Shown here: one piece after another, positions 23,458 to 47,676 of the stretch
Numbering within the stretch: the first letter of the stretch is position 1
How the letters are laid out: every line of letters starts with the position of its first letter
Translations under genes and position numbers: made by a program
Notes under the pieces: model-generated
Seen by the model: only the letters and a program-made list of their open reading frames with translations
What the model was told of the DNA's origin: nothing
Databases searched by the model: none
IMG/VR virus record: IMGVR_UViG_3300021958_000049
Location: 1 to 64,000 of that record
Direction: 5' to 3' (one strand)
Origin: a virus
Taxonomy: Duplodnaviria > Caudoviricetes
DNA length: 64,000 nucleotides

Positions 23458-24300
23458 ATGGCACTAGTAAAATTTTCAAAATTTAAAAAGGAAAGAGCTA
23501 CAATTAAAGAAGCTAGAAATAAAGAGATGAAATCTAAAAAGTTTAATCAACTATTTAGTGAAACTCTTAAAGAACTAGGACTTAATTCAGTAGCAGATCT
23601 TTCAGAAGAACAAATGAATTCATTTTTATCAGCATTAAAAACTAAAAAGATTAATGAAGGTAGAGCAGAAGAAATCGAAGCACATACAATGGCTGCTGGA
23701 GAACCTCAACCTGCTGGAATGGCTGGAGAAATTAACCAGAAACATGGTTTTGATTCACCACAAGATCCTAATACTGCAGAGGATGCTAAAGCAGAAGATT
23801 TGAAAGCAGATGAAAATGATACGATCGAAGTTGAGGTTGTTGATGATAATGCTGAGGTAACCGAAAATGCTGAAACTGTTAACGAAGCTAAATTTAAAAA
23901 AGGACAATATATTAAAGCCAAACGCAATAGCGATGATTTTGATGGAGATGTTTATGATAAAACTAACGACGTTGATGGATCTGAAATCTTAAAAAACTCA
24001 TCATTCGAAATTTACAAAATTAGTAAAGATGAAGTTATTCTTTGGAGTGATGCTGATGAAGTAGAATACTCTATCGATCCAGATGATCTTAAGAATTTCG
24101 TAAAGGAATCAGTAGTTAATGAAGCAGAAATTAAATCAGATAAGGAATTTGAAGATTATGCAACAGACGTTTTAAAGAAATCTCATCCAGACGATTATGA
24201 TGAGGCCATTGCCAAAAAGGTAATAGATGGTCTTAAAGACAAATATAAGGATGATTATGGTGCTATGGTTGGTGCTTTAACATCAGGATTTGGAGGATAA
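23458..24300 (+). CDS. Putative head-packaged polyprotein with NE-delimited modules
   Basis: MALVKFSKF leader; junctions IKE|A, INE|G, TVNE|AK and ESVVNE|AE. Confidence 0.5.
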   Translation: MALVKFSKFKKERATIKEARNKEMKSKKFNQLFSETLKELGLNSVADLSEEQMNSFLSALKTKKINEGRAEEIEAHTMAAGEPQPAGMAGEINQKHGFDSPQDPNTAEDAKAEDLKADENDTIEVEVVDDNAEVTENAETVNEAKFKKGQYIKAKRNSDDFDGDVYDKTNDVDGSEILKNSSFEIYKISKDEVILWSDADEVEYSIDPDDLKNFVKESVVNEAEIKSDKEFEDYATDVLKKSHPDDYDEAIAKKVIDGLKDKYKDDYGAMVGALTSGFGG

Positions 24301-24327
24301 TAGAATTAAAATATACACAAATAAGAT

Positions 24328-25485
24328 ATGAAAAATAAAATGATGACTTTTGATGCATTTAATCTTGTTAAGGAATTGAATGAATCTCATGATAAGTTTA
24401 ACAAAGAATTAGCTTTAAACGAAGCTTTTAAATCTGATTACCTAAGAAAATTTGCTTCTCAAGAAAGTGGAACTCGTTGGCAACCAGGATTTGCAAAAGA
24501 TTTCTATAAACATGCAGGAATTAAATTAGATCAGATCACTAACGAAGATTTTATTATATTATCGAATCCATCTGAATGGTGGACTCAAAAATACGCAAAG
24601 AATGACAATGCCGTTGGATTCTTTGTTGATGATGACCCAGAATTCTTAAAGGCATTAAAGAAAGCCAAGAAGCTTAAGAGTTTAGGTGGTGTCGGTGTAA
24701 TTCTTACAATTATGAGAGGTAATCGTGGAATGTGGTATGGATTTGCTAAAGATGCAGGTTCAAGTTTTTCAAGATATAGAAAAGGATCTACTGAGAGATA
24801 TGGTGTTCTTGCTGATGAATATGATACTGCATCTCTTTATGGATGGGATGGAGCTAAACAAAAGGCGAGAATAACTAGACCTAATCTGGAAGAAATGGCT
24901 ACTAAGGTTTATGTTTTAGATATTGATGCACTTAAAGAAAAATATAGTGCTTCTGAGTTAACTTCAAACCGTAGAGACTCTAAAGCTGGTGCTGTAGCTT
25001 TATTAAGTGATAAAGAGGTAAAAGCTGCTAATAAAGCTCGATATGAAAAAATTCTTCAAGATCGCTTAGATCCAAAATTAATGTTCGAAGATGTTAAAGA
25101 ATCGATGACTAAATATACAAATTGGTTGTCGAACAAAGTATCAGAAATTACATTAGACGGTATGGAATACGAGAATAGCAGTTATTTTAACGAACAGAAA
25201 GTTAAATGGGGTTCTTGGAATGAGAATCTTATGAGACCTATCGAAAATATGTGGAGTTTGTTGAATAAGTTTATGAATCGTTATTATGACTTCTTGAGAG
25301 ATCAAGCACATGTTGAAAGATTACAAGAAAAGCTTATTAAAGCAGATTCGACCGAAGCTCAAAAGATTCAAAGTGAAATCGACTACTATGCAAAAACATA
25401 TAACAGATTCGTAAAAGAAGCTACGAGTTATAGAGATTACGTAATAAAATATAAAAAAGACGTAGATGCAATTGTTTCAAAATAA
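24328..25485 (+). CDS. Putative head-packaged protein
   Basis: MMTFDAF leader followed by LNE|S and LNE|A. Confidence 0.45.
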   Translation: MKNKMMTFDAFNLVKELNESHDKFNKELALNEAFKSDYLRKFASQESGTRWQPGFAKDFYKHAGIKLDQITNEDFIILSNPSEWWTQKYAKNDNAVGFFVDDDPEFLKALKKAKKLKSLGGVGVILTIMRGNRGMWYGFAKDAGSSFSRYRKGSTERYGVLADEYDTASLYGWDGAKQKARITRPNLEEMATKVYVLDIDALKEKYSASELTSNRRDSKAGAVALLSDKEVKAANKARYEKILQDRLDPKLMFEDVKESMTKYTNWLSNKVSEITLDGMEYENSSYFNEQKVKWGSWNENLMRPIENMWSLLNKFMNRYYDFLRDQAHVERLQEKLIKADSTEAQKIQSEIDYYAKTYNRFVKEATSYRDYVIKYKKDVDAIVSK

Positions 25486-26779
25486 ATTTAAAAGATATAA
25501 TCAGTTTGTATTCGAAAAGTTAATTAACGAAGCAGATGATATTATTTTAGAAGGTGGTGCGTTTGGCCATATGGCACATCCATACGATGATATTAATTTA
25601 ACCTTTGGAGAAATTAAAAATATGATATCTGATGCTTTGCAAGGAGGATTAGATAAGGAGGTTGTTGCTTCTGAGAAATTAGATGGTCAGGCTATTGCGG
25701 TATCTTGGAGAAACGGAGAATTAGTTGCTGCAAGAAATAAAGGCCACTATAAAAACTCAGCTGCCGGAGCAATGAACGTTCAACAAACAATTGATAAGTT
25801 TGCAGGAAGAGGTGATATAAGTGATGCATTTGGTTTTGCTATTAAAGATCTATCAGATGCTATATCAAAAATAGATGCAAAGAAACGAGATGATATATTT
25901 AAGAATGGTAAATCGTTTATGCATCTAGAACTAATATATCCACCAACTACTAACGTAATTAATTATGATGCATATCGATTAATATTCCACAGTGCTACCG
26001 AGTATGATGAGGCAGGAAATCCTATAGGAGAAGATAAAGCTTCAGCTGCTTTATTAACAAAACTTATTAAGGGTGTTAATGCAGATATTCAAAAGACTTA
26101 TACAATAGTACCTCCAAAGGAGATGCAATTCACTAAAAATATTAATTATGAAGCTGATCGAGCAGAATTCTTTAAAGAGCTAGCAAAAATACAAAAAAGT
26201 GCTGGTATGAATGATAATCAATCTATTAGTGATTATATTAGAAAAGAATACACTGACTTAATAAAAGGTGCTGCTGATAAATATGGTTATGATATTCCTG
26301 AAGATGTTTTAGAAAAACTAATCAGAAGATTTGCATTTGAGGATAAATCTTTTAAAGTACCACAATTCAAAAAGGCAATACTAAATAAAGACTTTTTAGA
26401 ATGGACTCTAAAGTTCGATAAAACCGGAGTTAAAAATTACTACAAAGAAGTAATAGGACCTATTGAATTATTGTTCTTAAAACTTGGAGTTAAGGTTATT
26501 AAATTAGCTACCGGATTTTTAGCAACTAATCCAGACAAAGAAGTTCAACGAATTAAAGATGAGCTAGAAAAACTTATTAAGGATGTTAGAGCTGGTGATA
26601 ATGAAGTTAAGGTTGCTAAACTAGAAAGAGAACTTCGTAGACTTGAAGCTATCGGAGGATTTGATGCGGTAGTTCCTTCTGAAGGAATTGTATTTCAATA
26701 TAAAGGAAAGACATATAAATTAACAGGAGCATTTGCACCAATAAATCAGATACTAGGTACTATCAAATATATGAAATAA
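25466..26779 (+). CDS. Ligase-fold covalent nucleotidyltransferase-like protein with an internal-protein-type leader
   Basis: Motif I SEKLDG (25670-25687), motif IV EGIVF and motif V YKLTG. Leader KRYNQFVFEKLINE|A. Confidence 0.6.
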   Translation: MQLFQNKFKRYNQFVFEKLINEADDIILEGGAFGHMAHPYDDINLTFGEIKNMISDALQGGLDKEVVASEKLDGQAIAVSWRNGELVAARNKGHYKNSAAGAMNVQQTIDKFAGRGDISDAFGFAIKDLSDAISKIDAKKRDDIFKNGKSFMHLELIYPPTTNVINYDAYRLIFHSATEYDEAGNPIGEDKASAALLTKLIKGVNADIQKTYTIVPPKEMQFTKNINYEADRAEFFKELAKIQKSAGMNDNQSISDYIRKEYTDLIKGAADKYGYDIPEDVLEKLIRRFAFEDKSFKVPQFKKAILNKDFLEWTLKFDKTGVKNYYKEVIGPIELLFLKLGVKVIKLATGFLATNPDKEVQRIKDELEKLIKDVRAGDNEVKVAKLERELRRLEAIGGFDAVVPSEGIVFQYKGKTYKLTGAFAPINQILGTIKYMK

Positions 26780-26805
26780 ACTTTTTGTAAAATTGTTCAT
26801 ATAAT
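26777..26805 (+). promoter_or_regulatory. TAAACT-N17-TATAAT promoter-like element
   Basis: One-mismatch copy of the GAAACT-N17-TATAAY motif, upstream of the glycosylase. Confidence 0.6.
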
Positions 26806-26821
26806 TATTAAATAATATTTT

Positions 26822-27211
26822 ATGGCGATTATCCAACAAGAATTTCAACACGATCCATGGAAAATGTTAGTAGGTTGTATTATGTTAAATCAAACACATA
26901 ATCGACAAGTAAGAAGAGTAATATACGACTTCTTCGAAGCATATCCATCACCACAATCAATAACCGAAGAATCAATACCCGATATAGCAGAAAAACTAAG
27001 GCCATTAGGTTTTTACAATCGTAGAGCTAATACAATATATCGTTTTTCGCAAGAATATATAAATAAAGAATATAAACATGTATCTGAACTTTATGGTATA
27101 GGAAAATATGCGTCAGATTCATACGAAATATTCATAAATGATAATAATGATGTAAATCCAACCGATAAGATTTTAAATGCATACTTACGAGGTGAATTTA
27201 TAGATCAATAA
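26822..27211 (+). CDS. MBD4-like HhH-GPD DNA glycosylase (G:T/G:U mismatch type)
   Basis: HDPWKMLVGCIMLNQT...LRPLGFYNRRA..I..FSQEY...ELYGIGKYASDSYEIF closely follows the MBD4 glycosylase domain, including the catalytic Asp position. Confidence 0.8.
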   Translation: MAIIQQEFQHDPWKMLVGCIMLNQTHNRQVRRVIYDFFEAYPSPQSITEESIPDIAEKLRPLGFYNRRANTIYRFSQEYINKEYKHVSELYGIGKYASDSYEIFINDNNDVNPTDKILNAYLRGEFIDQ

Positions 27212-27252
27212 AAGACTGGAGATATATATTAAAACTAAAAAAACGAAAACAA

Positions 27253-27726
27253 ATGAACAATTTGAAAAGCTACGATGAATTTCTTTTTGAGGCTACTAAA
27301 GCTAAAGAAATCGAAGACAAAGTAAACGATTTAGGAGAACCAAAAGATGATAAAGCAGAAGCTGAAAAATCTATGAAAGATTCTTCCGAAGGACCTAAAG
27401 AAGTTGGTGCTGAAAAGGCCGATATTAAAAAGGATGAATTGAAAAAGGATGATAAAGCTGAAGCTGAAAAATCTATGAAAGATTCCTCTGAAGGACCTAA
27501 AGAACCTAAAGAAGAAAAAATCGAAGATGTTAAAGAAATGTCTGAGTATAACGAGAAACATGATAAATATGATGATCGTCTTGTAAACATGACTATTGGA
27601 AAAGTTTTAGATTATCTAAAAACTAAGGATCCTAACGCATATAAAGATATTGAGGCTTATTTAGAAAAGAACTTTAAAGATTTGACTAGTGCAGATGAAT
27701 CTTGGTTTACTACTATGACTGCTTAA
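27253..27726 (+). CDS. Putative head-packaged acidic/lysine-rich protein with an internal repeat
   Basis: Leader MNNLKSYDEFLFE|A, with GATATATA at 27221-27228. Confidence 0.5.
   Translation: MNNLKSYDEFLFEATKAKEIEDKVNDLGEPKDDKAEAEKSMKDSSEGPKEVGAEKADIKKDELKKDDKAEAEKSMKDSSEGPKEPKEEKIEDVKEMSEYNEKHDKYDDRLVNMTIGKVLDYLKTKDPNAYKDIEAYLEKNFKDLTSADESWFTTMTA
27343..27504 (+). repeat. Intragenic direct repeat, 2 x 60 bp (KDDKAEAEKSMKDSSEGPKE)
   Basis: Copies at 27343-27402 and 27445-27504 are identical in protein sequence with a few synonymous changes. Confidence 0.95.
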
Positions 27727-27735
27727 AACTAAAAA

Positions 27736-29442
27736 ATGTCTGCAGGATTATCAAATTTAATTTCATTATACAATCAAGAAGGTCGAGATTTTGTTCTTGA
27801 CCTTCTTGATAAATTTGTAGTAATCAAAGAAAAGAACAATGGTGCCAATCTTTATTTTAAAAAGGATGGTGACCATTTGTCATTTTATAGGTCTAATTTA
27901 AAACCTATTTCTATAATTGATAGAACAATTACATCTATTTATGAAAAGCCAATAAATCATATATTATCGGTAACTGAAGGTATTAAGTTTCCATCAAATT
28001 ATATGTATGGTATTAAATATGATTATGTTAATGAATCTATAACATTAGATGAAATTCGTGTATATAAATCTAGGACTAATATAAAGTTTATTGATGATTT
28101 GCAAATATTACAAGAAAACGCAAAGTCTTTGGAGATAAACTCTCCTAAAATAATACATTACGGTAGACTTAGTAATAATCAAAAGACAGAATTACTAAAA
28201 GTAATAGTAGATCCAAGTTTATTGGAATCAAATTTATCTAATATTTTTAATACGAATAATAACGAATTGATAATTAAATTTCTTGATAAAATGAACGAAA
28301 ATGTATCAGCAAAAATATTAGATCCTAAAAAGGAAATTAAGATTAAGAACGAGGTAAGAGAACCTTCGGATACTTATTCAATTGCTTTACAAGATGTTCT
28401 TGAATTTATACAAACTTTTAACTTTGATACAATAAAAATTAAAGGCGAAGATAACGATCAAAAAATCTTAAATATATTAGCCGATGTATATGCTAAGTAC
28501 ATGGCAAAAAATGGCTACAAATATTCAGGAATCGAAGATTTAGATGGACCTAACTTTTCGAAGAATATACCGTCATTTGATGTTAACTCTAAATTTGTAA
28601 TAAATAAAAACGCACAAAATTATATTGCAAAATCTCAGATTAATAAAGACTTGTTTAAATTGTTTTTAGGAACTTTTATTAAGAAGAAGAAAAAGACTAC
28701 AATATTAATTGACGAAAACACAAGATTCGAAATCAATAAAATAATAGATATTATTATGGAACGTATTAAGACAAAACCTATTGAAAAAGAAACCGTTCCT
28801 ACGTTTGAAGAATATTTCTATAATCGTTACCAAAAGCGTGCATTAATGGAAGCCGAGGAATTAACCGATGAGGAAACTTACATTATTGAAGGAGCTTCGG
28901 TAACAGATAAATCTCAGGGAAAGACTAAAGTAAACATAGTCGTTGGAAGATTTCAACCACCAACTTTAGGCCACGTTAAATTATTAAGACAATTACATGC
29001 GGTAAATAGTTTACCGGTAGTAGTTGTACAAGTAAGATCTAAGAGCGGACAAAAAACTCCATTTGATAATGAACTTATTACTAGAATATGGATGGATATT
29101 ACTAAGCAATATAAATTTATAGAAGGAGTTGTAGAAACTCAAACAGGATTTATATACAATATTATAGATGCTTTACGTCCATTATACGAACCAGTACTTT
29201 GGGGAACCGGTAGTGATCGATTAAAAGATTATGAAAGACAAATTTCTAAGTATGGTCCTGAGGCAAATGTATTAAAAGAATTTGAACCATACGAAGTTAA
29301 AAGAACTGGTAAAAATATAAGCGCAACGAAAGTAAGAGAGGCTATTTTAGAAGATAACCAAAATGAATTTAAAAAATTAACTCCTAAAGCTGAGCATAGA
29401 TATTACAAACAATTGAGAGCAGAGCTTTTACAATCAAAATGA
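27736..29442 (+). CDS. Degenerate ligase-like N-terminal domain fused to a C-terminal cytidylyltransferase-like (HxGH) nucleotidyltransferase
   Basis: N-terminal IKEKNNG resembles motif I. The C-terminal domain has VVGRFQPPTLGH, GTGSDR and ISATKVR. Confidence 0.65.
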   Translation: MSAGLSNLISLYNQEGRDFVLDLLDKFVVIKEKNNGANLYFKKDGDHLSFYRSNLKPISIIDRTITSIYEKPINHILSVTEGIKFPSNYMYGIKYDYVNESITLDEIRVYKSRTNIKFIDDLQILQENAKSLEINSPKIIHYGRLSNNQKTELLKVIVDPSLLESNLSNIFNTNNNELIIKFLDKMNENVSAKILDPKKEIKIKNEVREPSDTYSIALQDVLEFIQTFNFDTIKIKGEDNDQKILNILADVYAKYMAKNGYKYSGIEDLDGPNFSKNIPSFDVNSKFVINKNAQNYIAKSQINKDLFKLFLGTFIKKKKKTTILIDENTRFEINKIIDIIMERIKTKPIEKETVPTFEEYFYNRYQKRALMEAEELTDEETYIIEGASVTDKSQGKTKVNIVVGRFQPPTLGHVKLLRQLHAVNSLPVVVVQVRSKSGQKTPFDNELITRIWMDITKQYKFIEGVVETQTGFIYNIIDALRPLYEPVLWGTGSDRLKDYERQISKYGPEANVLKEFEPYEVKRTGKNISATKVREAILEDNQNEFKKLTPKAEHRYYKQLRAELLQSK

Positions 29443-29467
29443 TATATATTAAAAATAACACAAAATT

Positions 29468-30085
29468 ATGTCTGAATCATTAAACGAAGGACGTCATCAA
29501 GTTAAAAGACGTTATGGTACACATGGAAGAATTCGTGTAAACGAAAACGGTGCTAAGGTAAGAGAAACTATAATTAAGTATATAGGAAAAAATTACGTTA
29601 CTGAAGAAGATTTACATAATCATTTAATTCGTTTAGAAGAAGATCGTGGAGGTGTTAAAGTTAATAAAGCAAAATGGTTTGCCAGAAATCAAAAACTATT
29701 CTCGACATTCGAAAAGAAAGGCAATCGTTATTATTCATTATCTAAGTATGGAATGAGAGTTTTAGAATTAATGAATAACAAAGTTGTTAAGAAAACTTTG
29801 AATGAGAGTAATTTTAAAAACATCCCGTCTTTATCAGAATGGATTTCAATAAACGAAGCTAATGTAAACGAGGCTAAGTTTAATAAAAAGTCTTTAATGA
29901 AAGCTATGAAAAAGGATGATGGTATGATTCAATTAGGTAACGGTCAAGAATATGTTATCTATGCATTTGGTAACGGAAACGATGATAACGATGATATGTG
30001 GGGAGATAAAACAATTTTTGCGCTAGATCAAGACGGTGGAGAGCACGAGATTAAATACTCTGATATCGTAAGCTATAAAGAATAA
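29468..30085 (+). CDS. Putative head-packaged polyprotein with NE-delimited modules
   Basis: LNE|G, LNE|S and INE|ANVNE|AK junctions, with GATATATA at 29441-29448. Confidence 0.5.
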   Translation: MSESLNEGRHQVKRRYGTHGRIRVNENGAKVRETIIKYIGKNYVTEEDLHNHLIRLEEDRGGVKVNKAKWFARNQKLFSTFEKKGNRYYSLSKYGMRVLELMNNKVVKKTLNESNFKNIPSLSEWISINEANVNEAKFNKKSLMKAMKKDDGMIQLGNGQEYVIYAFGNGNDDNDDMWGDKTIFALDQDGGEHEIKYSDIVSYKE

Positions 30086-30094
30086 CTTTTAATT

Positions 30095-30679
30095 ATGCCA
30101 GCTACATCAAAAACTCAATTTAGGCTTTTTAGTCAAGTATATGGAGTACAAAAATTTAAAAAGTCAGGTGGTAAGGATGGATTAGATCCTAAAGAATTAA
30201 ATCCTGAATATAAAAAACAAATCGTAGATATGGCTGATGATATGACACAAAAAGATGTTAAAGATATGATTGATGTTGATTATGATAAACTTCCAGATGA
30301 GGTGAAGGAAAGTGCTGAATTAGAAGTTGGTACTTCGGTCGAATTTGAACATACTAAAGATCCTAAAGAGGCGGAGAAAATTGCTAAAGATCATCTTTCC
30401 GAAGATCCTAATTACTATTCTAAATTATATAAGGCTGGTTTAATTGATGAACCGGACGCTATTGAATTAGCAAAAAAAGCATTTGAGAATAATGCAATGG
30501 CAACCCCGGCAAGTGTAAACGGTATGGGAGATGTTGCATTACCTGGAAATCCAGGAACTGACGAAACCGGTAGCGGTGACATAGCTGCTACATCTGCTTT
30601 AACCGACGACGATGAAGACGAGGATGAAGGTAAGAAAATTTACAAGTTCTTAAAATTTAACGCATTTGTCGGTAAATAA
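30095..30679 (+). CDS. Modular hypothetical protein (DUF3008-like N-terminus plus DUF5661-like domain, by recollection)
   Basis: MPATSKTQFR...KLPDEVKE|S, then ELEVGTSVEFEHTKD..A..IA.DHL.EDPNYYSKL. Family names need an HMM check. Confidence 0.45.
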   Translation: MPATSKTQFRLFSQVYGVQKFKKSGGKDGLDPKELNPEYKKQIVDMADDMTQKDVKDMIDVDYDKLPDEVKESAELEVGTSVEFEHTKDPKEAEKIAKDHLSEDPNYYSKLYKAGLIDEPDAIELAKKAFENNAMATPASVNGMGDVALPGNPGTDETGSGDIAATSALTDDDEDEDEGKKIYKFLKFNAFVGK

Positions 30680-30684
30680 TTTCT

Positions 30685-30713: not shown

Positions 30714-30731
30714 TATTAAACTATACGCAAA

Positions 30732-31184: not shown

Positions 31185-31406
31185 ATGGAAAATGCAATGC
31201 AAGGAGCACCACAAATTGGACTGAATAATACAACCGAAATTAAATGTGAAGAATGTGAATCTGAATTCTTTGTGCAAGCATATAATTTACGTAAAGCATC
31301 TAAATTATTAACTGGATCTCCAAAAGATATGGTTATGCCAATACCAATTTTTAGATGTGCAGACTGCGGTAATGTTAATGAAGAATTTAAACCAAAAAAT
31401 AAATGA
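31185..31406 (+). CDS. Small Zn-ribbon protein
   Basis: CEEC...CADC. Confidence 0.65.
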   Translation: MENAMQGAPQIGLNNTTEIKCEECESEFFVQAYNLRKASKLLTGSPKDMVMPIPIFRCADCGNVNEEFKPKNK

Positions 31407-32788
31407 TATTAGATATTGAAAGCAAATGGAACAATGTTCGAATTTCTTATTTTGATAAAGAAGGTAATGTTAAATTAAAAGATTATCGAATAAATGATAT
31501 TCAAAATTGGACAGTGTGTTCCGAAACCGACAAAAACAAAAGCACAGATTACCGAAATTGGGATGGTAAACCTGTCAAAAAAGCAAAAGATCGTTATTTA
31601 AATAAATGGTCAATGTATGAATTCATACAGAATAACGAAGACTTAGAAGAATTATCCGCATTAAACTTTCCTAAAATATATTCAATTGATATTGAAACCG
31701 AAGTTATCGATGGTTTTCCTAATCCAGATATTGCAAGAGAACGTATTACAACAATAGCCATTGCAACTCAAGATAAAAAGGTAATGGTATTAGGATGGAA
31801 ACCTATTACCAAAGAACAAGAAAAAGAAATTTACGATAATACAAAAAATCACTTAAAAGCATTTGGTGATTGGGAATTTAAATATGTAAATTTCGATGAT
31901 GAATATAATATGTTATACACATATATACATCGATTATTACCTACAATGGCATTCGTAACAGGTTGGAATTATATCGGTTTTGACTGGAAATATATTTACA
32001 ATCGTTGCAGAAAACTAGGAATAGATCCAGCTCAAGCCTCTCCATCTAAAAAAGTTAATCGAGATAATATTCCATTACATATTGCAATGATGGATTATCT
32101 TGACATTTACCGTAGATTTGATCGTACTGTCGCAGTTAAAGAAAATAATACACTAGATTTTGTATCACAAACGGTTTTAGGTGCACAAAAAATTAAATAT
32201 AACGGTACCTTACAAGAATTATACGAACAAGATTATGATAAATATGTTTTCTATAATGCAGTTGATGCGGCTTTAGTAGTAGAAATTCACGAAAAAATTG
32301 CAACCCTCAACGCAGTATTATCAGTATCTGTTTTATGTAATATTAGTTTATATAAATCAGTATCTGCTGTAAATATTACCGAAGCATTCTTATGGAAAAA
32401 ATATTACGAACGAGGTTTTGTAGTTGGTGATGAATTTATTAGACCTGGTGAACGAAAAGGTTATGAAGGTGCATACGTTAAAGAACCACAAACCGGTTTT
32501 TACAAAGGCGCTGCATGTTTTGATTTCGCTTCTCTATATCCATCAATTATGAGACAAATAAATATTTCTCCTGAATCCTTTATTAAAAAGGAAATGAATC
32601 AAGAAAAACTTGCAGAATTAAGGAAAGATAAAACCAAGATTGTATCGGTCACTGGTGCTGTTTATCATAAAGAAGATAGCGCAATGAAAGATATTCTTAC
32701 TGAATTATATTCTAAACGAAAGGTGCATAAAAAACGTCACCTTGAATTAGAAGTTGAAATACAAAAACTAAAAAAACAATTAAAATAA
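31403..32788 (+). CDS. gp43: DNA polymerase family B, N-terminal subunit (exonuclease plus palm motif A)
   Basis: SIDIET (ExoI), GWNYIGFD (ExoII), YNAVD (ExoIII) and FDFASLYPSIM. The protein stops in the first fingers helix. Confidence 0.92.
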   Translation: MILDIESKWNNVRISYFDKEGNVKLKDYRINDIQNWTVCSETDKNKSTDYRNWDGKPVKKAKDRYLNKWSMYEFIQNNEDLEELSALNFPKIYSIDIETEVIDGFPNPDIARERITTIAIATQDKKVMVLGWKPITKEQEKEIYDNTKNHLKAFGDWEFKYVNFDDEYNMLYTYIHRLLPTMAFVTGWNYIGFDWKYIYNRCRKLGIDPAQASPSKKVNRDNIPLHIAMMDYLDIYRRFDRTVAVKENNTLDFVSQTVLGAQKIKYNGTLQELYEQDYDKYVFYNAVDAALVVEIHEKIATLNAVLSVSVLCNISLYKSVSAVNITEAFLWKKYYERGFVVGDEFIRPGERKGYEGAYVKEPQTGFYKGAACFDFASLYPSIMRQINISPESFIKKEMNQEKLAELRKDKTKIVSVTGAVYHKEDSAMKDILTELYSKRKVHKKRHLELEVEIQKLKKQLK

Positions 32789-32791
32789 ATT

Positions 32792-36345: not shown

Positions 36346-37086
36346 ATGCAGTTAGAGATTACAAAAATTTATCCAGGACCTCTTACCAATACAGTAAAGA
36401 AACTCCTACTCATGGATCAATCGGTATACCTTAATCTTACCGATGATACCATATTTTCGAATTCGTATTTGCCAACTAAAGACGTTGCAAAAATCGTAAT
36501 TACTCCAACAAGTGAAATATTTGAATTTGAACAAAAACCAGATATGCCAGTTAAGATATCGTTTTTTGCTGGTCAAAAACTGATTGATTGTTTAAAATTC
36601 TTTGATATTCATAATTTACGAGGAACATTACATTATTATCAAGAAGGCGAAGAATATTTCGCTGAAAAGCTAATTATTCGAGATGGTGTTCTTGAAGTTA
36701 CTTTACATTGTGCCGATGTTTCACTCGGTTTTACTACAATGTCCGAAACTCAAGTAAGTGCCGCATTTGGTAAAGATAATTCAATATATGAATTTGATCT
36801 TTCGCAAGAAAATTTATCAAAATTAAATAATCTTATTACGTTAGATAAAAACGAGTTATTTAAGATTTACTCAGATAATCGAGGTGTTCATGTGGCTGGT
36901 GATACTTATGATATTATTATCGACGATTCCGTAACCGAAACTCACAGATCAGTAGATTTATTTAAAACATTCTTTTCTAGAATTGATAAAGAATCGTATA
37001 AAGTAACCGTATGTCAAAATAAACTTCTATTAGATTCAGAAGATTCTTCAACCAGGGTTGCTCTTAACCTTGCAATAAAAGCTTAA
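36346..37086 (+). CDS. gp45: Putative sliding clamp (gp45-like)
   Basis: 246 aa with a two-domain alpha/beta clamp-like pattern, coupled (TAATG) to the polymerase C-half. A clamp loader is encoded in the window. Confidence 0.55.
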   Translation: MQLEITKIYPGPLTNTVKKLLLMDQSVYLNLTDDTIFSNSYLPTKDVAKIVITPTSEIFEFEQKPDMPVKISFFAGQKLIDCLKFFDIHNLRGTLHYYQEGEEYFAEKLIIRDGVLEVTLHCADVSLGFTTMSETQVSAAFGKDNSIYEFDLSQENLSKLNNLITLDKNELFKIYSDNRGVHVAGDTYDIIIDDSVTETHRSVDLFKTFFSRIDKESYKVTVCQNKLLLDSEDSSTRVALNLAIKA

Positions 37087-38219
37087 TGAAAGAACTAGAA
37101 GCGAAAATAAAATCGATGGAGCATGAAAGCTTGATGAATTACAATCTCGAGCAAGCAATTAAATTAGCGATTAACTCAATTTATGGTGCATTCGCTAATG
37201 ATTACTTTCATTTCCGTAGTACTGATATTGCCGAAACAGTTACGCTTCAAGGTCAAGATGCCATTAAACATACCGAAGTAAACGTAGAAAAATACTTCAA
37301 GGAGTTTTGGCACAAAGATAAAAAGTTACACGAAGCAATGGGTATTACTGGTGAAGTAAAACCATTAACACAAAATGTTTGGAAATATACTGATACTGAT
37401 TCAGGTTATATTATATTTGAAGAAGTAATGGAATCATGTAATTGGCAAGGTACAGTAATGGACTTTATCTTAAAAATTAATAAGCATAGGTTAGCCGATT
37501 ATATTAAAATGGTTCTTCAAAAATATGCAGAATCATATAACTCTGATAATTTCTTAGATTTTGAATTAGAAACTATTGCACACAATGCAATATGGGTAGC
37601 GAAAAAGAAATATGTTCAAAATATAATATGGAAGGATGGTAAAACTTTCGATGCAGGATCTTACATATCAACAAAAGGTTTAGAAATTATACAATCATCC
37701 ACTCCGGCATTTTGTAGAGATAAACTAACTGATCTTGTTAAATTTCTTTTTTCTAAAGATAAATTAGATAATGATGCTATTGGTGGATTAACCAGAGTTC
37801 TTAAAGAAATTAAGAAAGAATTTCAATTAGCTGATATTGAACAAATATCATCAAATCGTAGAATAGGTGATTACAATAAATTTGTAATAAATGATACAAA
37901 CGAATTTGAATTAGCTAAAGGATGTCCAATACATGTTCGAGCAGGTGCTCATCATAATTATCTCGTTAATAATTCAAAACAAAAGAATGATTTTGAAATG
38001 ATTAAAACCAGCGATAAAATTAGATGGTATTATGCATCAGATCAATTTTGCGATGTATTTGGATATTTACCTGGAAACTTTCCATATCAATTAGCACCTA
38101 AAATCGATATAGATCGACAATTTGAAATGTTTATATTAGAACCATTAAATCGAATTATCATTCCATCAGGAATGCCAAGATTAAACCGAAGTTTAGCATA
38201 TACAATATCACTATTTTAA
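37086..38219 (+). CDS. gp43: DNA polymerase family B, C-terminal subunit
   Basis: KLAINSIYG (motif B), YTDTDS (motif C), KKKY, KGLEIIQSSTP and a hydrophobic C-terminal TISLF. Confidence 0.92.
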   Translation: MKELEAKIKSMEHESLMNYNLEQAIKLAINSIYGAFANDYFHFRSTDIAETVTLQGQDAIKHTEVNVEKYFKEFWHKDKKLHEAMGITGEVKPLTQNVWKYTDTDSGYIIFEEVMESCNWQGTVMDFILKINKHRLADYIKMVLQKYAESYNSDNFLDFELETIAHNAIWVAKKKYVQNIIWKDGKTFDAGSYISTKGLEIIQSSTPAFCRDKLTDLVKFLFSKDKLDNDAIGGLTRVLKEIKKEFQLADIEQISSNRRIGDYNKFVINDTNEFELAKGCPIHVRAGAHHNYLVNNSKQKNDFEMIKTSDKIRWYYASDQFCDVFGYLPGNFPYQLAPKIDIDRQFEMFILEPLNRIIIPSGMPRLNRSLAYTISLF

Positions 38220-39976: not shown

Positions 39977-39982
39977 CACATT

Positions 39983-41284: not shown

Positions 41285-41297
41285 TAAAATAAAAATT

Positions 41298-41795
41298 ATG
41301 TGGGAAGACGAAAACACAAACGATAACGAAGAAAACAAAATACCAGATCCATTAGATAGAACCTCATCTTTACAGGATGATAAGATATTTAATAACAATT
41401 ATGAACTGACTGAATATGATGGTACACCTATTAGCTTTACACCGGTTGATGGTTATGAATCTAATTTAACAGAAGCAGATATTGAGTATGGAATGATATA
41501 TGATATCGTTTCAAAATTCTTAGCTAAAAGCAAATACGAAAAATATAATAAACCTGATAAAGAAGGAACTTTTAAGAAATTAAATAAAATGCAAATAAAT
41601 GAAGTGTATTCATATACATTATCAGAATTTGGTGGTTTTCCTAAGGTACAATTATTTTCAGTAGTACAAGATTATTTTGATATCAATTCAAATAAGTTTT
41701 ATGATTCGTTATCAAATACATTTAAGAAAGAATTAATAGAAGAATTAAGAAACGGAGGTTCGTTGAAAGAGAAAACTGGAGGACCGTTATTTTAA
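41298..41795 (+). CDS. Hypothetical protein; weak candidate for a gp33-like late-transcription co-activator
   Basis: Acidic N-terminus, helical C-domain and a C-terminal GPLF. The gp33 resemblance is weak and by eye only. Confidence 0.25.
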   Translation: MWEDENTNDNEENKIPDPLDRTSSLQDDKIFNNNYELTEYDGTPISFTPVDGYESNLTEADIEYGMIYDIVSKFLAKSKYEKYNKPDKEGTFKKLNKMQINEVYSYTLSEFGGFPKVQLFSVVQDYFDINSNKFYDSLSNTFKKELIEELRNGGSLKEKTGGPLF

Positions 41796-41799
41796 CAAT

Positions 41800-42879
41800 A
41801 TGATAATACCGAATGGAAAGGCTAAAAGAGCCTGGATAATATCTGACACACATTTTGGCGCTAGAAACAACAGTGTTGAATGGTTAGAGCGAATGACAGC
41901 GTATTTTGAAGAATTTTTCATTCCACATGTAAAAGAAAACTACAAAAAAGGCGACATATTAATTCATTGTGGAGATGTTTATGATAATCGACAAAGCGTT
42001 AATTTACTCGTATTAAATAAAACTTTAAATTTATTTGAAAAATTTTCAGAAATATTTATAGATGGTATTTATGTGATTGCAGGAAATCACGATATCATGA
42101 GAAAAAATTCAAACGAAGTTACATCATTAGATACTCTTAAATATATTCCAAATGTAACTATATTAAAAGAACCTGCAACGCTAAAAACAAAAACTTCAAC
42201 ATCTTTGTTAATGCCTTGGAGGAAATCTGAATCTGATGAAAAGGTAGTTGTCAGTGGTAGTGATGCCGATTATTTATTTTGTCACACTACTATTCGTGGA
42301 GCTAAATTTGATAAATATCGACATTCTGGCGAAGGATTAGCAAGTAATGAGTGCAAACAATTCAAAAAGGTATTTACCGGCCATATCCATTTAGCACAAC
42401 AATATAAAAACATAAGATATGTAGGTAATCCATATCAAATGACTCGGTCAGATACCAATAATAAAAAAGGTTTTATATGTTTAGACTTTGAAACAGGAAC
42501 CGAAGATTTTTACGAAAATACGTACTCTTCTAAATTTGTAAAGTTGTATATAAATCGAGCGTTAGATTCAACTATGCAAGATTTAATAAATGCTGCTGAT
42601 AATAATTTCGTTGATGTGTATGTTCCTAATGATTACTTAATGAAATATCAAGTAACACCATTAATTGATGAATTAAGTAAAGTATCTAAAAAACTAGATG
42701 TTATACCATTTGAATTAGATGACAATGATAATTTAATGGAATATGATATTGACTATGATAAAACTTTAGATACCTATAATTTATGTGAAAAATTCGTTGA
42801 AGGCATGAGTATTGAAGGTGCAACAAAAACAAAAGTTTTATCTTTACTTAAACAAGTATATTTACAAAATAGCAAATAA
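41800..42879 (+). CDS. gp47: gp47/Mre11/SbcD-like nuclease
   Basis: ISDTHFG, HCGDVYD, AGNHD, FCHT and GHIH. Confidence 0.92.
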   Translation: MIIPNGKAKRAWIISDTHFGARNNSVEWLERMTAYFEEFFIPHVKENYKKGDILIHCGDVYDNRQSVNLLVLNKTLNLFEKFSEIFIDGIYVIAGNHDIMRKNSNEVTSLDTLKYIPNVTILKEPATLKTKTSTSLLMPWRKSESDEKVVVSGSDADYLFCHTTIRGAKFDKYRHSGEGLASNECKQFKKVFTGHIHLAQQYKNIRYVGNPYQMTRSDTNNKKGFICLDFETGTEDFYENTYSSKFVKLYINRALDSTMQDLINAADNNFVDVYVPNDYLMKYQVTPLIDELSKVSKKLDVIPFELDDNDNLMEYDIDYDKTLDTYNLCEKFVEGMSIEGATKTKVLSLLKQVYLQNSK

Positions 42880-44549
42880 TGAGAATAAAAAGCGTAGAAT
42901 GGAAAAACTTTAATGGATATGGGAATATACCATCTAAAATCGATTTTACTCGAGATGGTATGCTTTATCTTTTAGTCGGCCAAAATGGCGCAGGAAAAAG
43001 CACAATAGCTGAAGTACTAACATACGCATTGTATGGTAAAGTTGAAGGTAAGCGACTGGGTGATTTAGCAAATCGCATTAATCGAGGTATGGAAGTTACA
43101 TTAAATATGTCTTGTAAAGGAAAGGATATTACAATTAAACGAGGCATATCTCCGAATTATTTTGAATTGTTTATTAACGATGAACCATACGATCAAGCCG
43201 GCAATAAAAACGTACAGGATTATATGGAAACTGAATTATTAGATATTCCATATCAAGTTTTTAAAAACATTATTATGCTATCAGTCAACGATTTTAAATC
43301 GTTTTTGACTATGTCACGAGGTGATAAAAGAAATATTGTTGATCGATTGTTTGGATTCACGGTAATTAATGCTATGAGAGAATCTATACGAGAAAAGCGT
43401 AGAGAGGTAAAGCAAGATATTCAAACATTATACGATGAATTAAATATACTTGAAGAAAGCATAGATTCAATCAATGAAAAAATTGAAATACTTAAAAAAG
43501 AAAAGCGAGTAGATCAATCAAAATTGATTGAGGAATATCAAGATAAATTATCTGCCATCGAGCAAAAACATGCAGATACATCAGATAAATTGAAAATATT
43601 AAATAATAGATATACCGAATTTAAAAAGATAGTTCAAGAGAAATCATCTAGTGAATCAACTATTACCACTAATTTGCTCGATATTAAAAAACGGTTAGAT
43701 TTATTTGAAAAATCAAAATGTCCGACATGTGGAAGTGAATTCGATATGAACGGTGAACACGGTCATATTAAAGAAAGTTTACTTGATGATGCAAAAACAA
43801 ATAAAATAGAATTAAAGGAAATACGATCAGAGCTAGAATCTGCCCAAACAAACTTAGATAAATGTGAAGGTTTTATTAGATCCTCGAAAGATAGTATCGT
43901 TAGATTAGAAACTTTAACATCACAATATAAATACGAGCTAGATCAAATAGTATCTAAATCAGAGAAAAAGGATTTTCAATATCTCAAACAACTTATTACA
44001 GAAAATAATAAAAAGACACAAGATAAATCAGGTCAAAAGTATAAGCAAGAAAATGAAGATAAGTTTTTAGAATTAGTGGAGACGATATTAGGGGAAGAAG
44101 GTATTAAAAATCTCGCATTAAAAACCATATTACCTCCACTTAATGCATCAATAGAATCTATGTTAAAGCAAATGCATATACCACATAGAATTAGATTTGA
44201 TGAAAAATTTGATTGTATCATAACATCGTTAGGTGAAGAAATAAATCCTAACACTATGAGTACAGGTGAAAGAAAGAAATCAGATTTTGTAATTATCATT
44301 GCAATGATTAAATTACTTAAGGTTCGTTATCCATCAATTAATTTACTCTTCTTAGATGAAATATTCTCATCAATAGATGGTGGTGGAATTCACGAAATAA
44401 TAGCAATTCTAAAAGATACCGTCCAAGAAACAGGATTAAATACTTGGGTAATAAATCACTCAGAATTACCAGTAAATCTTTTTGATATAAAAGCAGAAGC
44501 CTTTAAAGAAGGTGGATTCTCTAAACTAAATTTAGAAACCATTACATAA
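42879..44549 (+). CDS. gp46: gp46/Rad50/SbcC-like ATPase
   Basis: GQNGAGKST, Zn-hook CPTCG, signature MSTGE and LFLDE. Confidence 0.92.
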   Translation: MRIKSVEWKNFNGYGNIPSKIDFTRDGMLYLLVGQNGAGKSTIAEVLTYALYGKVEGKRLGDLANRINRGMEVTLNMSCKGKDITIKRGISPNYFELFINDEPYDQAGNKNVQDYMETELLDIPYQVFKNIIMLSVNDFKSFLTMSRGDKRNIVDRLFGFTVINAMRESIREKRREVKQDIQTLYDELNILEESIDSINEKIEILKKEKRVDQSKLIEEYQDKLSAIEQKHADTSDKLKILNNRYTEFKKIVQEKSSSESTITTNLLDIKKRLDLFEKSKCPTCGSEFDMNGEHGHIKESLLDDAKTNKIELKEIRSELESAQTNLDKCEGFIRSSKDSIVRLETLTSQYKYELDQIVSKSEKKDFQYLKQLITENNKKTQDKSGQKYKQENEDKFLELVETILGEEGIKNLALKTILPPLNASIESMLKQMHIPHRIRFDEKFDCIITSLGEEINPNTMSTGERKKSDFVIIIAMIKLLKVRYPSINLLFLDEIFSSIDGGGIHEIIAILKDTVQETGLNTWVINHSELPVNLFDIKAEAFKEGGFSKLNLETIT

Positions 44550-44586
44550 TGGATATATAAAGAGAATACTAAAATTATTTGAATAA

Positions 44587-45627
44587 ATGTCTCAACTTTA
44601 CGATTTAGAATTTAACAAAAGTGATGTAGTTCTACGTAATATATTAATAGGTGTACTCGCGACGCTTAATAATAAAATGTATTGGTATAATAGAATTAGC
44701 CAAACTGAGAAGAAGAAAATTAACATTCCTTTTTATTTTAGTACCACTGGAGATGAGCGATTCTTGATGGATACATTTATGAATACGGTCTCTGCTGGTG
44801 GAACTGATAAGTCTAAAGCTGAGGGTGTATATAATCAAATACCTAGAGGTATAGTGCAATTAGATAATGTTGCTATTGACGCAGGTTCTATGACTAATAA
44901 GTACGTCAGAGCATTTTATTCTAGAATTCAAGAAGATGGAACTTTACGAACTAAAAGTTCTGAGGTATTTATGGTACCTTTAAAAATGCCATTCACTGTA
45001 GATATTTACGTAAATACCAATTTAGATATATTTAAAGCTATTCAGAGAGCTATTGAAATATTCTACAAACATCAAGTATTTCAAGTTGATATTGACGGTA
45101 CTCGAATACCGGCAGTAGCTTCAATGCCTGAAGATTTTTCTAAAGAAAGACCTATTGAATATTCATTTGGTGATAAAAAGGAATGGAAGGTAACCTTTAA
45201 TATAGAAGTTCAAACATTCTTACCAATATTTAAAAATGCCGAAAATGGATTCCTTGGACCTAACAATACAGAATTCGATGCATCAAACGTAATGCAAGGA
45301 TTTGGTTCAAATATAAGATTTGCCGATCAAGGAGGTATTAGTAGTATTAGTCCATTCGCTGCAGATTTTGGTGCTAACGATAATGCATTCGGTCCTGGAA
45401 GTAATAACCAAACAGCATCTGGTGTATCTGGATTTGAAAATAATACAGATTCTAATACAGGATCTTTTGATAATAGTGTAACGGACAATGTTAATGGAAA
45501 CGGACCTAATCAATCAGGAAATCAAGTTGATCCTACAAACACAGATAATCGAGGTGGATATGGTCCTACATGGCCAGTAAGAAATCCAACACCATTGCCA
45601 AAAAATGGTGGAGCTACGTCTAGCTAA
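44587..45627 (+). CDS. gp15: gp15-like tail terminator / sheath stabiliser with a low-complexity C-terminal extension
   Basis: LRNILIGVLATLN...INIPFYF...ERFL...IPRG...VPLKM.F.V.I...DIFKAIQ pattern, with GATATATA at 44552-44559. Confidence 0.65.
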   Translation: MSQLYDLEFNKSDVVLRNILIGVLATLNNKMYWYNRISQTEKKKINIPFYFSTTGDERFLMDTFMNTVSAGGTDKSKAEGVYNQIPRGIVQLDNVAIDAGSMTNKYVRAFYSRIQEDGTLRTKSSEVFMVPLKMPFTVDIYVNTNLDIFKAIQRAIEIFYKHQVFQVDIDGTRIPAVASMPEDFSKERPIEYSFGDKKEWKVTFNIEVQTFLPIFKNAENGFLGPNNTEFDASNVMQGFGSNIRFADQGGISSISPFAADFGANDNAFGPGSNNQTASGVSGFENNTDSNTGSFDNSVTDNVNGNGPNQSGNQVDPTNTDNRGGYGPTWPVRNPTPLPKNGGATSS

Positions 45628-45675
45628 ATAACTTAATTATTAAAGATAAATATATAAACAAAATAAAATTATACA

Positions 45676-47676
45676 ATGAGCAAATTAAAGAATTTTGACG
45701 AATTTGTCAATGAAAATTTGGTTATCGGAGGAACATACAAACACTTCGGACCTGGATCATTAGATCCTATTATTCAAAAGCTTATAGGTGAAGGAAAGAA
45801 CGAATCTATTATTAGAACATACTTAACATCACTTGGTGTTGAATCTTGGAGAATAGATAAAGCAATGTCTAAATTTGGTGGAGTTGAATTTTCAGGTGAA
45901 AAGAATATGAACGAAGCTAAATCAAAGAAAACTTTCGAAGAAACTGCAAATAAATTTCTTTCTGATATTAATGAAGAAGACGAAGAATCTATCGATGAAG
46001 CATCTCGTTGGAAAGGAAAGGAAATATTTCCTAATTGGGTTAAACCAAATGAAATTTCAGGATTAATCAAAAAAGAAAAGGATTTAGAAAAAGGTTCTAT
46101 GTACGCTTTATTAGACTTAGGTTTAGATGTTTGGCAAGCGGAATATGAATACGAAGGAAAGGTTGGGCCTATACATATATTTAAATCAACTGCTCAAGGA
46201 ACTAGCGATGATTCTAATATAGAATTTACTGATAGTGAATTAAAATCTGCACTTAAGAATTTAGAAATTGCAGTAATGGAAGCTTATCAAATGGCTATGA
46301 ATGAAGCTAAAATTAATAAAAACGCTAAACGTTCAATAAGACCTCATAATAAAGTAAAACCAGGAATGGTTGCTATAGACTATAATGACGAACCTTACAC
46401 AGTTGTTGGAGTTGGTAAAGCTAGTGAATTACTTGATTTTGATGATAGTGGAATTGCTGCTGATGGAATGGATATGGATGAACCAGCAATCGCAACAATA
46501 GGAAGAGGTGGTTATGCTGTTTATTCTTATATGCCTGATGGTGCCGTTGTTTACGAATCAGAAGTTAATGAAGCTAAATTTGTAAAAGATTTTAATAAAG
46601 ATGTTTTAGATGCTACTACAGAAAAGGAAGTAAAGTCAATATATCCTAAAGCGGTATTCTTTATCGGAAAACATTCACACTTTTTTGGAGAACTTGAAGA
46701 TAACTTATTCTTTAAAGCATACTATATTAAAGGAAGGAGTGAATTTGAAATCAAATCAATTTATTCTCAGAAAGGAAGTAAATATGTTCATTTATATCTT
46801 AATGAATCAATGGTTAATGAAGCTAAAAAATACACAATAAAAGATATTATATCTGCTTACAAAGACGCTTTTGGTGAAGATATCACGAAAGGCGATAGAG
46901 TAGATATAATAGACGATATCAAATCTGATTACAAAGGTAAGATCACTATAGATGACTTAAAGGCTATTTATGACGATAGATATGGTGAGGAAATTGAAGC
47001 AGACTTTTTGGATGCATTAGGCGAATCTGTTAACGAAGCTAAAAAGAAAACTTTTGAAGATGCTGCCGCTGCATTTATTTTAGGTCTTGCTGGTAGCGAC
47101 CAAATCGACGAAATGTCAGAAAACAAAATGCCAACTAACGAGGAAGTAACAAAATGTATTGCAGATGGAATGACTTACGAACAAGTTTGTGAGAAATATC
47201 CCGATGCAGATAAAGCAAAGTTAAAAGAAATGTACGAATCGTGTGGTAAAAAACATGAGAGTGTATCAGAAAAACTTAATAAAGAATCTCTTCAAATTGA
47301 AGAAGGTGACGGTGAAGATATTGATGATATGATCGACGATCTTGCCGATGGTGATGAAGATGAATATCAAGGTGCTGATGATGAAGCTCCTAAAGATAAA
47401 GATTCTGATGATTCTGATGATTCTGAATCTGGTTTAGATAAAGCAGTTAAAGATGCTAAAAAAGATAAGAAAAAACTAGATAAAATTAAAGACATATTAA
47501 CAAGCGAAGCGGAAGAAGTTGAGCTTGATAAAGACGGAAAAGAAGAAAAAGATAAAGAAAACATCGAAGACGAAGAAAGTGGAGATGAGATCGAAATCGA
47601 AGAATCCGTTGATAAGGAAAGTGATGCATACATGGCTGCAGTACTTGAAGGTCTTAAAAAGAAATTCAACGGGTAA
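45676..47676 (+). CDS. Putative head-packaged polyprotein made of tandem NE|AK-delimited cassettes, 666 aa
   Basis: Leader MSKLKNFDEFVNE; five NE|AK junctions plus further xxE|A/S sites; acidic tail. Confidence 0.55.
   Translation: MSKLKNFDEFVNENLVIGGTYKHFGPGSLDPIIQKLIGEGKNESIIRTYLTSLGVESWRIDKAMSKFGGVEFSGEKNMNEAKSKKTFEETANKFLSDINEEDEESIDEASRWKGKEIFPNWVKPNEISGLIKKEKDLEKGSMYALLDLGLDVWQAEYEYEGKVGPIHIFKSTAQGTSDDSNIEFTDSELKSALKNLEIAVMEAYQMAMNEAKINKNAKRSIRPHNKVKPGMVAIDYNDEPYTVVGVGKASELLDFDDSGIAADGMDMDEPAIATIGRGGYAVYSYMPDGAVVYESEVNEAKFVKDFNKDVLDATTEKEVKSIYPKAVFFIGKHSHFFGELEDNLFFKAYYIKGRSEFEIKSIYSQKGSKYVHLYLNESMVNEAKKYTIKDIISAYKDAFGEDITKGDRVDIIDDIKSDYKGKITIDDLKAIYDDRYGEEIEADFLDALGESVNEAKKKTFEDAAAAFILGLAGSDQIDEMSENKMPTNEEVTKCIADGMTYEQVCEKYPDADKAKLKEMYESCGKKHESVSEKLNKESLQIEEGDGEDIDDMIDDLADGDEDEYQGADDEAPKDKDSDDSDDSESGLDKAVKDAKKDKKKLDKIKDILTSEAEEVELDKDGKEEKDKENIEDEESGDEIEIEESVDKESDAYMAAVLEGLKKKFNG
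45907..47043 (+). repeat. Dispersed 15-bp direct repeats (G/A)T(T/G)AA(T/C)GAAGCTAAA at cassette junctions
   Basis: Copies at 45907, 46297, 46564, 46813 and 47029. Related copies are at 23878, 24115 and 29864. Confidence 0.8.

Follow-up and report, generated by a model that had tools for sequence, protein, structure and literature searches.

Cassette-built proteins with prohead-protease-type joints as candidate precursor polyproteins of an internal head-protein system in an environmental T4-like phage

The window analyzed here, the first 64 kb of the 76.7-kb contig IMGVR_UViG_3300021958_000049 (30% G+C, all genes on the + strand), carries three open reading frames (ORFs, named by their first nucleotide), 23458, 29468 and 45676, that consist of small modules joined by a recurrent peptide motif. 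We propose that the three encode precursor polyproteins of an internal head-protein system, a reading to which we assign roughly two chances in three. In this mechanism the polyproteins would be made late, alongside the portal and protease-scaffold genes, and an N-terminal T4-type capsid-targeting leader would carry them into the prohead core, where a gp21-family serine protease, encoded by the N-terminal part of ORF 52500, would cut after Glu at E-S-V-V-[N/T]-E|A-[K/R] and free each compact 58-130-aa module as a separate small protein. The in-frame joints would at the same time serve as 15-27-nt direct repeats, through which recombination could add, delete or exchange modules with both reading frame and cleavage grammar intact. 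The classic example of protein injection along with phage DNA is provided by the T4 internal proteins, among them the anti-restriction factor IPI*; they are few in number and, beyond the T-even phages, difficult to identify. For the window proteins, the architectural and evolutionary reading is well supported and their processing is strongly suggested.

Joint motif and module architecture

Strict sites were defined as [VILM]-N-E-[ASG], where | marks the predicted cut after Glu, and counted over all window proteins (20,442 aa). Composition predicts 4.7 sites; the count is 30, an approximately 6-fold excess, and the motif is found in only eleven proteins: 45676 (6 sites), 52500 (6), 29468 (4), 23458 (3), 56041 (3), 24328 (2), 47736 (2), and 25466, 27736, 54276 and 14432 with one each. 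It is absent from thirteen replication and nucleotide enzymes (5,035 aa), and a single copy was counted among the large ORFs, those of the tail included, that precede 17403, in agreement with the expectation of the initial annotation that it would be enriched in late over replication proteins. In composition-preserving shuffles of each protein (20,000 per protein), the observed site counts of ORFs 23458, 29468, 45676 and 52500 were never equalled, while ORFs 56041 (P = 0.00075) and 24328 (P = 0.0016) gave low probabilities and ORF 47736 (P = 0.027) only a weak enrichment. As judged from these sequence counts, only proteins that are associated with the head or bear a leader carry the motif. At the joints its consensus is E-S-V-V-[N/T]-E|A-[K/R], and tandem double sites 5 residues apart are common.

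The three polyproteins are laid out as follows:

23458..24300, + strand: polyprotein A, 280 aa, with strict sites
23458-23658, 23659-23886, 23887-24123 and 24124-24297, + strand: polyprotein A module a, module b (acidic), cassette c and module d; cuts predicted after residues 67, 143 and 222, plus I-K-E|A after residue 18
29468..30085, + strand: polyprotein B, 205 aa, four sites
29468-29488 and 29489-29806, + strand: 7-aa leader and basic module a of polyprotein B
29807-29872 and 29873-30082, + strand: short linker with a double site and module c of polyprotein B
45676..47676, + strand: polyprotein C, 666 aa, six strict sites
45676-45714, + strand: leader of polyprotein C, inside module m1 (45676-45915)
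45916-46305, 46306-46572, 46573-46806 and 46807-46821, + strand: modules m2, m3 and m4 and a 5-aa spacer
46822-47037 and 47038-47673, + strand: module m5, and module m6 with an acidic tail

The modules of the three ORFs are mutually unrelated (no cross-matches at E<0.01), and the description of these ORFs as unrelated modules joined by hydrophobic-N-E|A/S/G, in numbers that shuffling never matches, is borne out. The upper bound of the module size first proposed, 70-130 aa, is kept, and the lower one moves, the measured range being 58-130 aa. Three further ORFs had been listed as less clear cases; of these, 24328 has two sites and 56041 three, and no site was found in 30095.

Polyproteins A, B and C match no PHROG or Pfam family, and we modelled m2 and m4 with AlphaFold2 run on per-module alignments. 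The m4 model (predicted local distance difference test score, pLDDT, 81 overall and ~90 in the core) comprises two helices and five strands, the m2 model (pLDDT 84, core near 90) is mostly beta, and the joint residues in both fall below 50. On these models we are confident that m2 and m4 are autonomous compact domains with disordered joints. Foldseek comparison of m2 and m4 with the PDB returned nothing at E<=0.001, and a HigB/RelE-like assignment of m4 and a Tudor/SH3-like assignment of m2 were set aside, the corresponding rows being weak (E 0.1 for m4). VIA-align gave no evidence relating m4 to Ugi-type small inhibitors (Z 3.5-4.4; the best Z, 4.6, lies below the chance-arrangement level), a search of the ESM Atlas with m4 gave no usable match, and a winged-helix fold for module a of ORF 29468 is a weak lead only (ESM Atlas scores 0.76-0.78).

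A peptide of ~25 aa, K-K-x-T-F-E-E-x-A-x-K-F-L followed by acidic residues, occurs twice in ORF 45676 (45916-45990 and 47038-47115) and in one to three copies in its orthologues; it may represent a second anchoring element.

Exchange and shuffling of modules among relatives

In orthologues, the breakpoints of indels and replacements coincide exactly with the joints, as had been anticipated for exchangeable cassettes. In L083, a relative whose helicase is 99% identical to that of the window, an unrelated module replaces cassette c of ORF 23458: identity is lost a few bases past the left joint and regained at the right joint, and the swapped cassette lies between perfect 27-nt direct repeats 189 nt apart (L083 9883-10677; ORF nt 406 and 595), a sequence arrangement consistent with repeat-mediated insertion or deletion. 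In L085, module c of ORF 23458 is absent, with the break exactly at the joints, and the orthologue of ORF 29468 ends, beyond the junction, in another module. Between the gp15 and 47736 homologues, the syntenic gene keeps m1 and the acidic tail and differs in the middle; L014 lacks m4 and L001 lacks m5, each from joint to joint, and the L014 DNA is the repeat-joined product of the 15-nt flanks of m4. Across relatives, the slot of ORF 45676 is empty or holds either one small leader-bearing protein or a 452-758-aa polyprotein, and further polyproteins occupy other variable slots of the same conserved core. The replacement of modules in near-identical genomes suggests, at the level of sequence, diversifying selection on their content rather than bulk.

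The same modules also recur in other proteins. An exhaustive HMMER search with ORF 45676 yielded 171 matches, in discrete query ranges that coincide with the modules; as the modules of ORF 45676 and 149 matches are not collinear, no full-length MAFFT alignment was obtained and per-module alignments were used. Module m4 alone is represented by 64 cluster representatives of 82-1,025 aa and can stand at any position in the protein. Modules c and d of polyprotein A adjoin ORF 45676 modules in other proteins, modules a and c of polyprotein B are found in many other architectures, and modules of ORFs 23458 and 29468 stand next to those of ORF 45676 in varied orders, with modules of the three ORFs occurring together in more than 30 further proteins, which answers the earlier question of whether one module would turn up in different host ORFs. 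At least two strict sites are present in 94 of 150 relatives, with a maximum of 12. Single-linkage clustering of the inter-site segments collapsed into one component and gave no usable family count.

We then asked what precedes a module where it occurs elsewhere, using only residues upstream of each alignment, outside the queries, in 50%-identity cluster representatives. Hydrophobic-x-E precedes 107 of 127 module starts, compared with a per-position background of 4.6%, and a boundary drawn arbitrarily at residue 541, so preceded in 0 of 9 cases, provides an internal control; most module boundaries in relatives coincide with a joint-type sequence, as had been proposed. P3 among the 127 junctions is V in 80, L in 13 and I in 9. 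Stand-alone m2 homologues of ~105-110 aa consist of a leader, a cut site and one module, which is the architecture of a T4 internal protein.

The joints are also conspicuous as DNA: GTTAAYGAAGCTAAA occurs in 4 exact copies on the + strand against 0.05 expected, and 15-nt repeats are placed as follows:

46564..46578, again 46813-46827, + strand: 15-nt junction repeat GTTAATGAAGCTAAA, the copies flanking m4
23878-23892 and 47029-47043: variants of the 15-nt junction repeat

One could therefore read the joints as primarily DNA recombination signals with an incidental encoded peptide, a view favored by the perfect 15-27-nt repeats that flank cassettes, by deletion products that are repeat-joined sequences and by the far over-represented 15-mer. 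We regard it as highly improbable, because wobble positions differ among joints (AAT/AAC, GAA/GAG, GCT/GCA/GCG, GTT/GTA), which places the constraint chiefly on the peptide and not the DNA. Synonymous positions vary under fixed amino acids, P3 changes conservatively among V/L/I/M, P2 alternates between N/T/D through non-synonymous changes, and the motif is also present without a cassette boundary, in the scaffold and in leaders. Both may nevertheless hold, with protein constraint creating the microhomology that recombination exploits. The near-identical 15-bp junction repeats described at the outset are real insofar as the 15-mer is strongly over-represented, and overstated insofar as wobble positions vary.

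Protease, leaders and upstream motifs

The candidate protease and the capsid protein lie downstream of the polyprotein C slot:

52500..54251, + strand: protease-scaffold protein, 583 aa, with the protease at ~residues 24-157 and a scaffold-like C-terminal part
54276..55943, + strand: major capsid protein, gp23 family (Pfam Gp23, E 4.6e-40, model starting at residue 84)

ORF 52500 matches Pfam Peptidase_S77 (44 bits, curated cut-off 27) and PHROG 207, head maturation protease, and is 31% identical to T4 gp21 over 109 aa in BLASTP, with G-E-L-D-H-P aligned with G-E-L-N-H-P and I-S-S-R with V-S-S-R of the T4 protein; we take G-E-L-x-H-P and S-S-R to be the catalytic His and Ser motifs. The scaffold-like part carries six hydrophobic-N-E|A/S/G sites; the motif is indeed present in the scaffold, as the initial annotation had it, in six sites rather than four and within a single 583-aa protease-scaffold ORF. 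One site of ORF 52500, R-V-N-E|A at residues 162-165, lies just past the protease domain, and C-terminal processing is likewise expected for T4 gp21 (PMC9026906). The T4 enzyme cleaves after Glu in L/I-x-E and has many sites in the core proteins (PMC9026906), a documented specificity in line with the earlier claim of cleavage after Glu for a window protease of the S77 family. The window sites, with hydrophobic P3, Glu at P1 and small P1', fit the gp21 substrate pattern.

These data bear on a reading in which the polyproteins are never cut and the motif is a favored interdomain linker inherited with the modules. Linkers can stay conserved as domains spread by duplication, and the case for processing so far comes from genes, with cleavage a prediction from them. 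Against this stand the presence of one motif flanking unrelated modules as well as ending N-terminal leaders, its sixfold occurrence in the protease-scaffold protein, its gp21-type residue preferences at P3, P1 and P1', the common tandem double sites and the existence of single modules as separate genes with a leader and a site. We consider the uncut alternative very unlikely, and it is probable from the sequences that the polyproteins are both packaged and cleaved.

In all relatives examined, protease and scaffold form one ORF (573-663 aa where complete), whereas T4 genes 21 and 22 are separate. A ~50-aa three-Cys mini-module of ORF 45676 (47110-47270, residues ~480-530) is also found within the protease-scaffold ORF of distant relatives, as in L072 8073-9875, where residues 376-426 match it at 78% identity over 51 aa and are bounded by cut-type sites.

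In the capsid protein, L-I-N-E at residues 4-7 is conserved in relatives, with P1' varying among S/Q/A/N/T, and in alignment with T4 gp23 the N-terminus falls at the beginning of the delta domain. Near residue 43, the relatives show L-N-E|S or L-H-E|N, or else L-Y-E|N as the window does. From these alignments the capsid maturation cut probably falls near residue 43 rather than after residue 7; the L-I-N-E|S of the capsid leader, previously put forward as a protease site, is present, and the real cut is likelier to be the downstream one.

ORF 30095 (30095-30679), which had been counted among the joint-bearing proteins and has no site, carries a DUF5661 N-terminal part. Its residues 130-166 resemble capsid residues 42-84, from the predicted delta-domain cut x-E|N-N into the N-arm, and its C-terminal part matches the capsids of more than 15 relatives at 41-62% identity. 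By its sequence, this part may mimic the capsid arm or be left over from recombination.

Several leaders resemble those of T4 internal proteins. The N-termini of T4 IpII and IpIII (AF158101) are ten residues ending I-A-E|A, and ORF 45676 begins M-S-K-L-K-N-F-D-E-F-V-N-E; a start of the form M-x-K-L-K-x-F-x-E-F-[VIL]-N-E is shared by ORF 45676 and 48 of 142 complete relatives, and because it ends in -N-E, leader and joints end in the same motif. Of the 770 distinct ORFs that surround the head genes in related contigs and encode 100 aa or more, 91 have a leader-type start, and in the window ORFs 45676, 20719, 27253, 25466 and 58847 carry aromatic-x-x-[FL]-[VILF]-x-E within their first 23 residues. 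By sequence, ORF 45676 has a clear leader of the capsid-targeting type and ORF 23458 a weaker one, and none is evident in ORF 29468.

Further proteins with sites or leaders resembling a capsid-targeting sequence (CTS) are:

20719..20961, + strand: 80-aa protein with the CTS-like leader F-Q-E-F-V-N-E
24328..25485, + strand: 385-aa single-body protein, leader cuts predicted after residues 20 and 33, kept in L083 and L085
25466..26779, + strand: 437-aa protein whose leader ends L-I-N-E|A after residue 23, a cargo candidate and not a polyprotein
27253..27726, + strand: 157-aa acidic protein with a CTS-like leader ending F-L-F-E|A, conserved in L085
47736..49214, + strand: 492-aa conserved protein directly downstream of the variable slot, sites after residues 71 and 187
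56041..58389, + strand: 782-aa K/E-rich protein with a hydrophobic helix, two N-terminal sites and one C-terminal
58847..60304, + strand: RimK-type ATP-grasp enzyme with a CTS-like leader ending I-T-E|A

The leader of the RimK-type enzyme suggests that it is packaged in the head. A 115-aa protein at 17433-17780 combines a leader-like start with an acidic spacer and a glycine-zipper-like C-terminus (Pfam Gly-zipper, weak and below cut-off).

An upstream motif, RATATATAW, recurs before head, tail-completion and candidate cargo genes alike:

45649..45657, + strand: RATATATAW, 27 nt before the polyprotein C ATG
17403, 22893, 27221, 29441, 44552, 47696, 50823 (portal), 52465 (protease-scaffold) and 56009, + strand: further RATATATAW copies
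26798, 30706, 36320, 49288, 61474 and 62036: second motif class, CATATAAY..ATTAAA

Thirteen of its 16 occurrences lie no more than 70 nt upstream of a start codon, mostly at 27-40 nt. It precedes the portal, protease-scaffold, gp15, 47736 and 56041 genes and also ORFs 45676, 29468, 27253 (where an ATATATA motif stands 32 nt before the ATG) and 22933, the head of the run 22933-23458-24328-25466, and 41 of 45 distinct relatives have it ahead of the protease-scaffold gene (background 2.4%). The T4 late promoter TATAAATA is depleted in the window (8 found, 20 expected) and was set aside in favor of the ATATATA motif. The second class lies 24-28 nt upstream of the genes for dUTPase, the gp55-like sigma factor and others, and the two motifs probably represent two promoter classes, to judge from their sequences and placement.

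The surrounding genome has a T4-type core that includes tail tube, SSB, primase, helicases, ribonucleotide reductase, UvsX, SbcCD, gp15, a gp55-like late sigma factor, gp4, gp2, portal (50852), protease-scaffold (52500) and capsid (54276). Its family-B DNA polymerase is split into an exonuclease half (31403-32788) and a polymerase half (37086-38219), with both ribonucleotide reductase genes and two small ORFs between them, and the P0013-bearing contig has the identical polymerase split and gene order. The nearest public genome is that of the uncultured 462-kb phage LR756500.1 (capsid 55% and polymerase half 45% identical), whose equivalent slot holds no polyprotein and no module homologue. The capsid protein has 550 relatives in IMG/VR, and single-protein pattern scans retrieved five loci only as relatives of the 23458-30085 region.

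Fate of the modules and comparison with known systems

Several observations weigh against an internal head-protein system. Most modules are acidic (pI 4.1-4.9), whereas T4 IPII and IPIII are basic, which makes retention next to the DNA uncertain, and the 7-aa leader of ORF 29468 has no aromatic pair. Searches of Pfam, PHROGs, Foldseek, VIA-align and the ESM Atlas gave no module a recognisable function or fold, and 50,697 phage records searched by tblastn contained no counterpart of ORF 45676. At P2, N and T occur side by side inside one protein, with N dominating the scaffold sites of fetched relatives, and this mix within single proteins renders covariation with the protease-scaffold uninformative. 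The putative role of RATATATAW as a late promoter comes from its position and conservation.

The acidity of most modules, together with the highly acidic tail of ORF 45676 and the mini-module seen inside a scaffold ORF elsewhere, also fits a different fate, in which the modules would be cut in the prohead as disposable core or scaffold filler, or as size- or charge-balancing material, and expelled or degraded before or during DNA packaging; T4 gp22, gp67 and gp68 provide the model, since core proteins of T4 have many cut sites and for the most part do not stay in the head (PMC9026906). Such filler, however, has no need of dozens of distinct, well-folded and individually conserved domains, the swap of unrelated modules among 99% identical neighbors suggests selection on content and not bulk, and the stand-alone forms are built like T4 internal proteins, which are retained and ejected (PMC9026906). 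We therefore judge the filler reading unlikely, if the most serious of the alternatives.

Within the internal head-protein reading, that the freed modules are retained in the head and ejected into the host seems, from the sequences, slightly short of an even bet, and a role in host takeover or counter-defence is a more tentative suggestion still. Equally tentative is the fullest form of the proposal, a combinatorial 'cargo train' in an environmental T4-like clade, in which one leader would draw interchangeable effectors into the head, the protease would uncouple them and the set would be co-injected as an anti-defence or host-takeover arsenal. The cassette polyprotein system first outlined in the initial annotation stands in its grammar, its protease family and its exchange and shuffling at the joints, and gives way in the capsid leader, ORF 30095 and the details of the DNA repeats.

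Sequence grammar alone (a leader, joints and repeat-flanked in-frame cassettes) marks a large pool of small autonomous domains, and domain exchange between nearly identical genomes is the pattern expected of arms-race genes. If the proposal is true, a leader combined with E-S-V-V-N/T-E|A-K joints would flag hundreds of unknown injected effectors in metagenomes, the polyproteins would represent a natural design for loading several cargo proteins into a capsid at a fixed ratio, and they would show a tailed phage using polyprotein logic.

The closest known counterparts are T4 IPI, IPII, IPIII and Alt with their CTS, which share with the window system a short aromatic-pair leader ending hydrophobic-x-E|A and a gp21-family protease, and whose cargo is likewise small, diverse, poorly conserved and encoded in hyperplastic loci (PMC3012670, PMC9026906). 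They differ in having one leader per cargo, compared with up to six or more modules per precursor here, each set off by its own cut site, and in that the window modules are mostly acidic. T4 gp22, gp67 and gp68 undergo many L/I-x-E cuts by gp21, comparable to the six sites of the window scaffold (PMC9026906), but yield small peptides that mostly leave the head and are not shuffled chains of folding domains. In phiKZ, 201phi2-1 and SPN3US, the diverged gp21 homologues gp175/gp245 process many head proteins after Glu, again with redundant cut sites and with a mass of protein ejected with the DNA (PMC10052503, PMC9026906). Besides protease self-cleavage, however, the cuts reported for SPN3US take off N-terminal propeptides, so that each gene yields a single mature product (PMC10052503), and the phiKZ motif is S/A-x-E (PMC9026906), in contrast to V/L/I at P3 here, which sets the window system apart from the phiKZ type.

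Polyvalent proteins of phages and conjugative elements (Iyer 2017, PMC5512222) resemble the window proteins in carrying unrelated domains in one mosaic polypeptide, and Iyer, Burroughs, Anand, de Souza and Aravind themselves draw the analogy with viral polyproteins for these DNA-delivered, conflict-type domains (PMC5512222). Their domains are, however, large and enzymatic with embedded peptidases, whereas the window modules are small and without Pfam families; no embedded peptidase was found in the window polyproteins, for which we propose that the prohead protease acts in trans, at joints of fixed grammar. The polyproteins of RNA viruses and retroviral Gag are similarly assembled into the particle as precursors and then cut by a virion protease, but their order is fixed, conserved and essential, in contrast to the variable, apparently dispensable and combinatorial order seen here. 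A full-text literature search found no description of protease-jointed, shuffled small-domain chains in a tailed phage, polyvalent proteins and giant-phage propeptides coming nearest. The parts are already known, namely the gp21 family, its specificity, the CTS and the hyperplastic loci; their arrangement is not.

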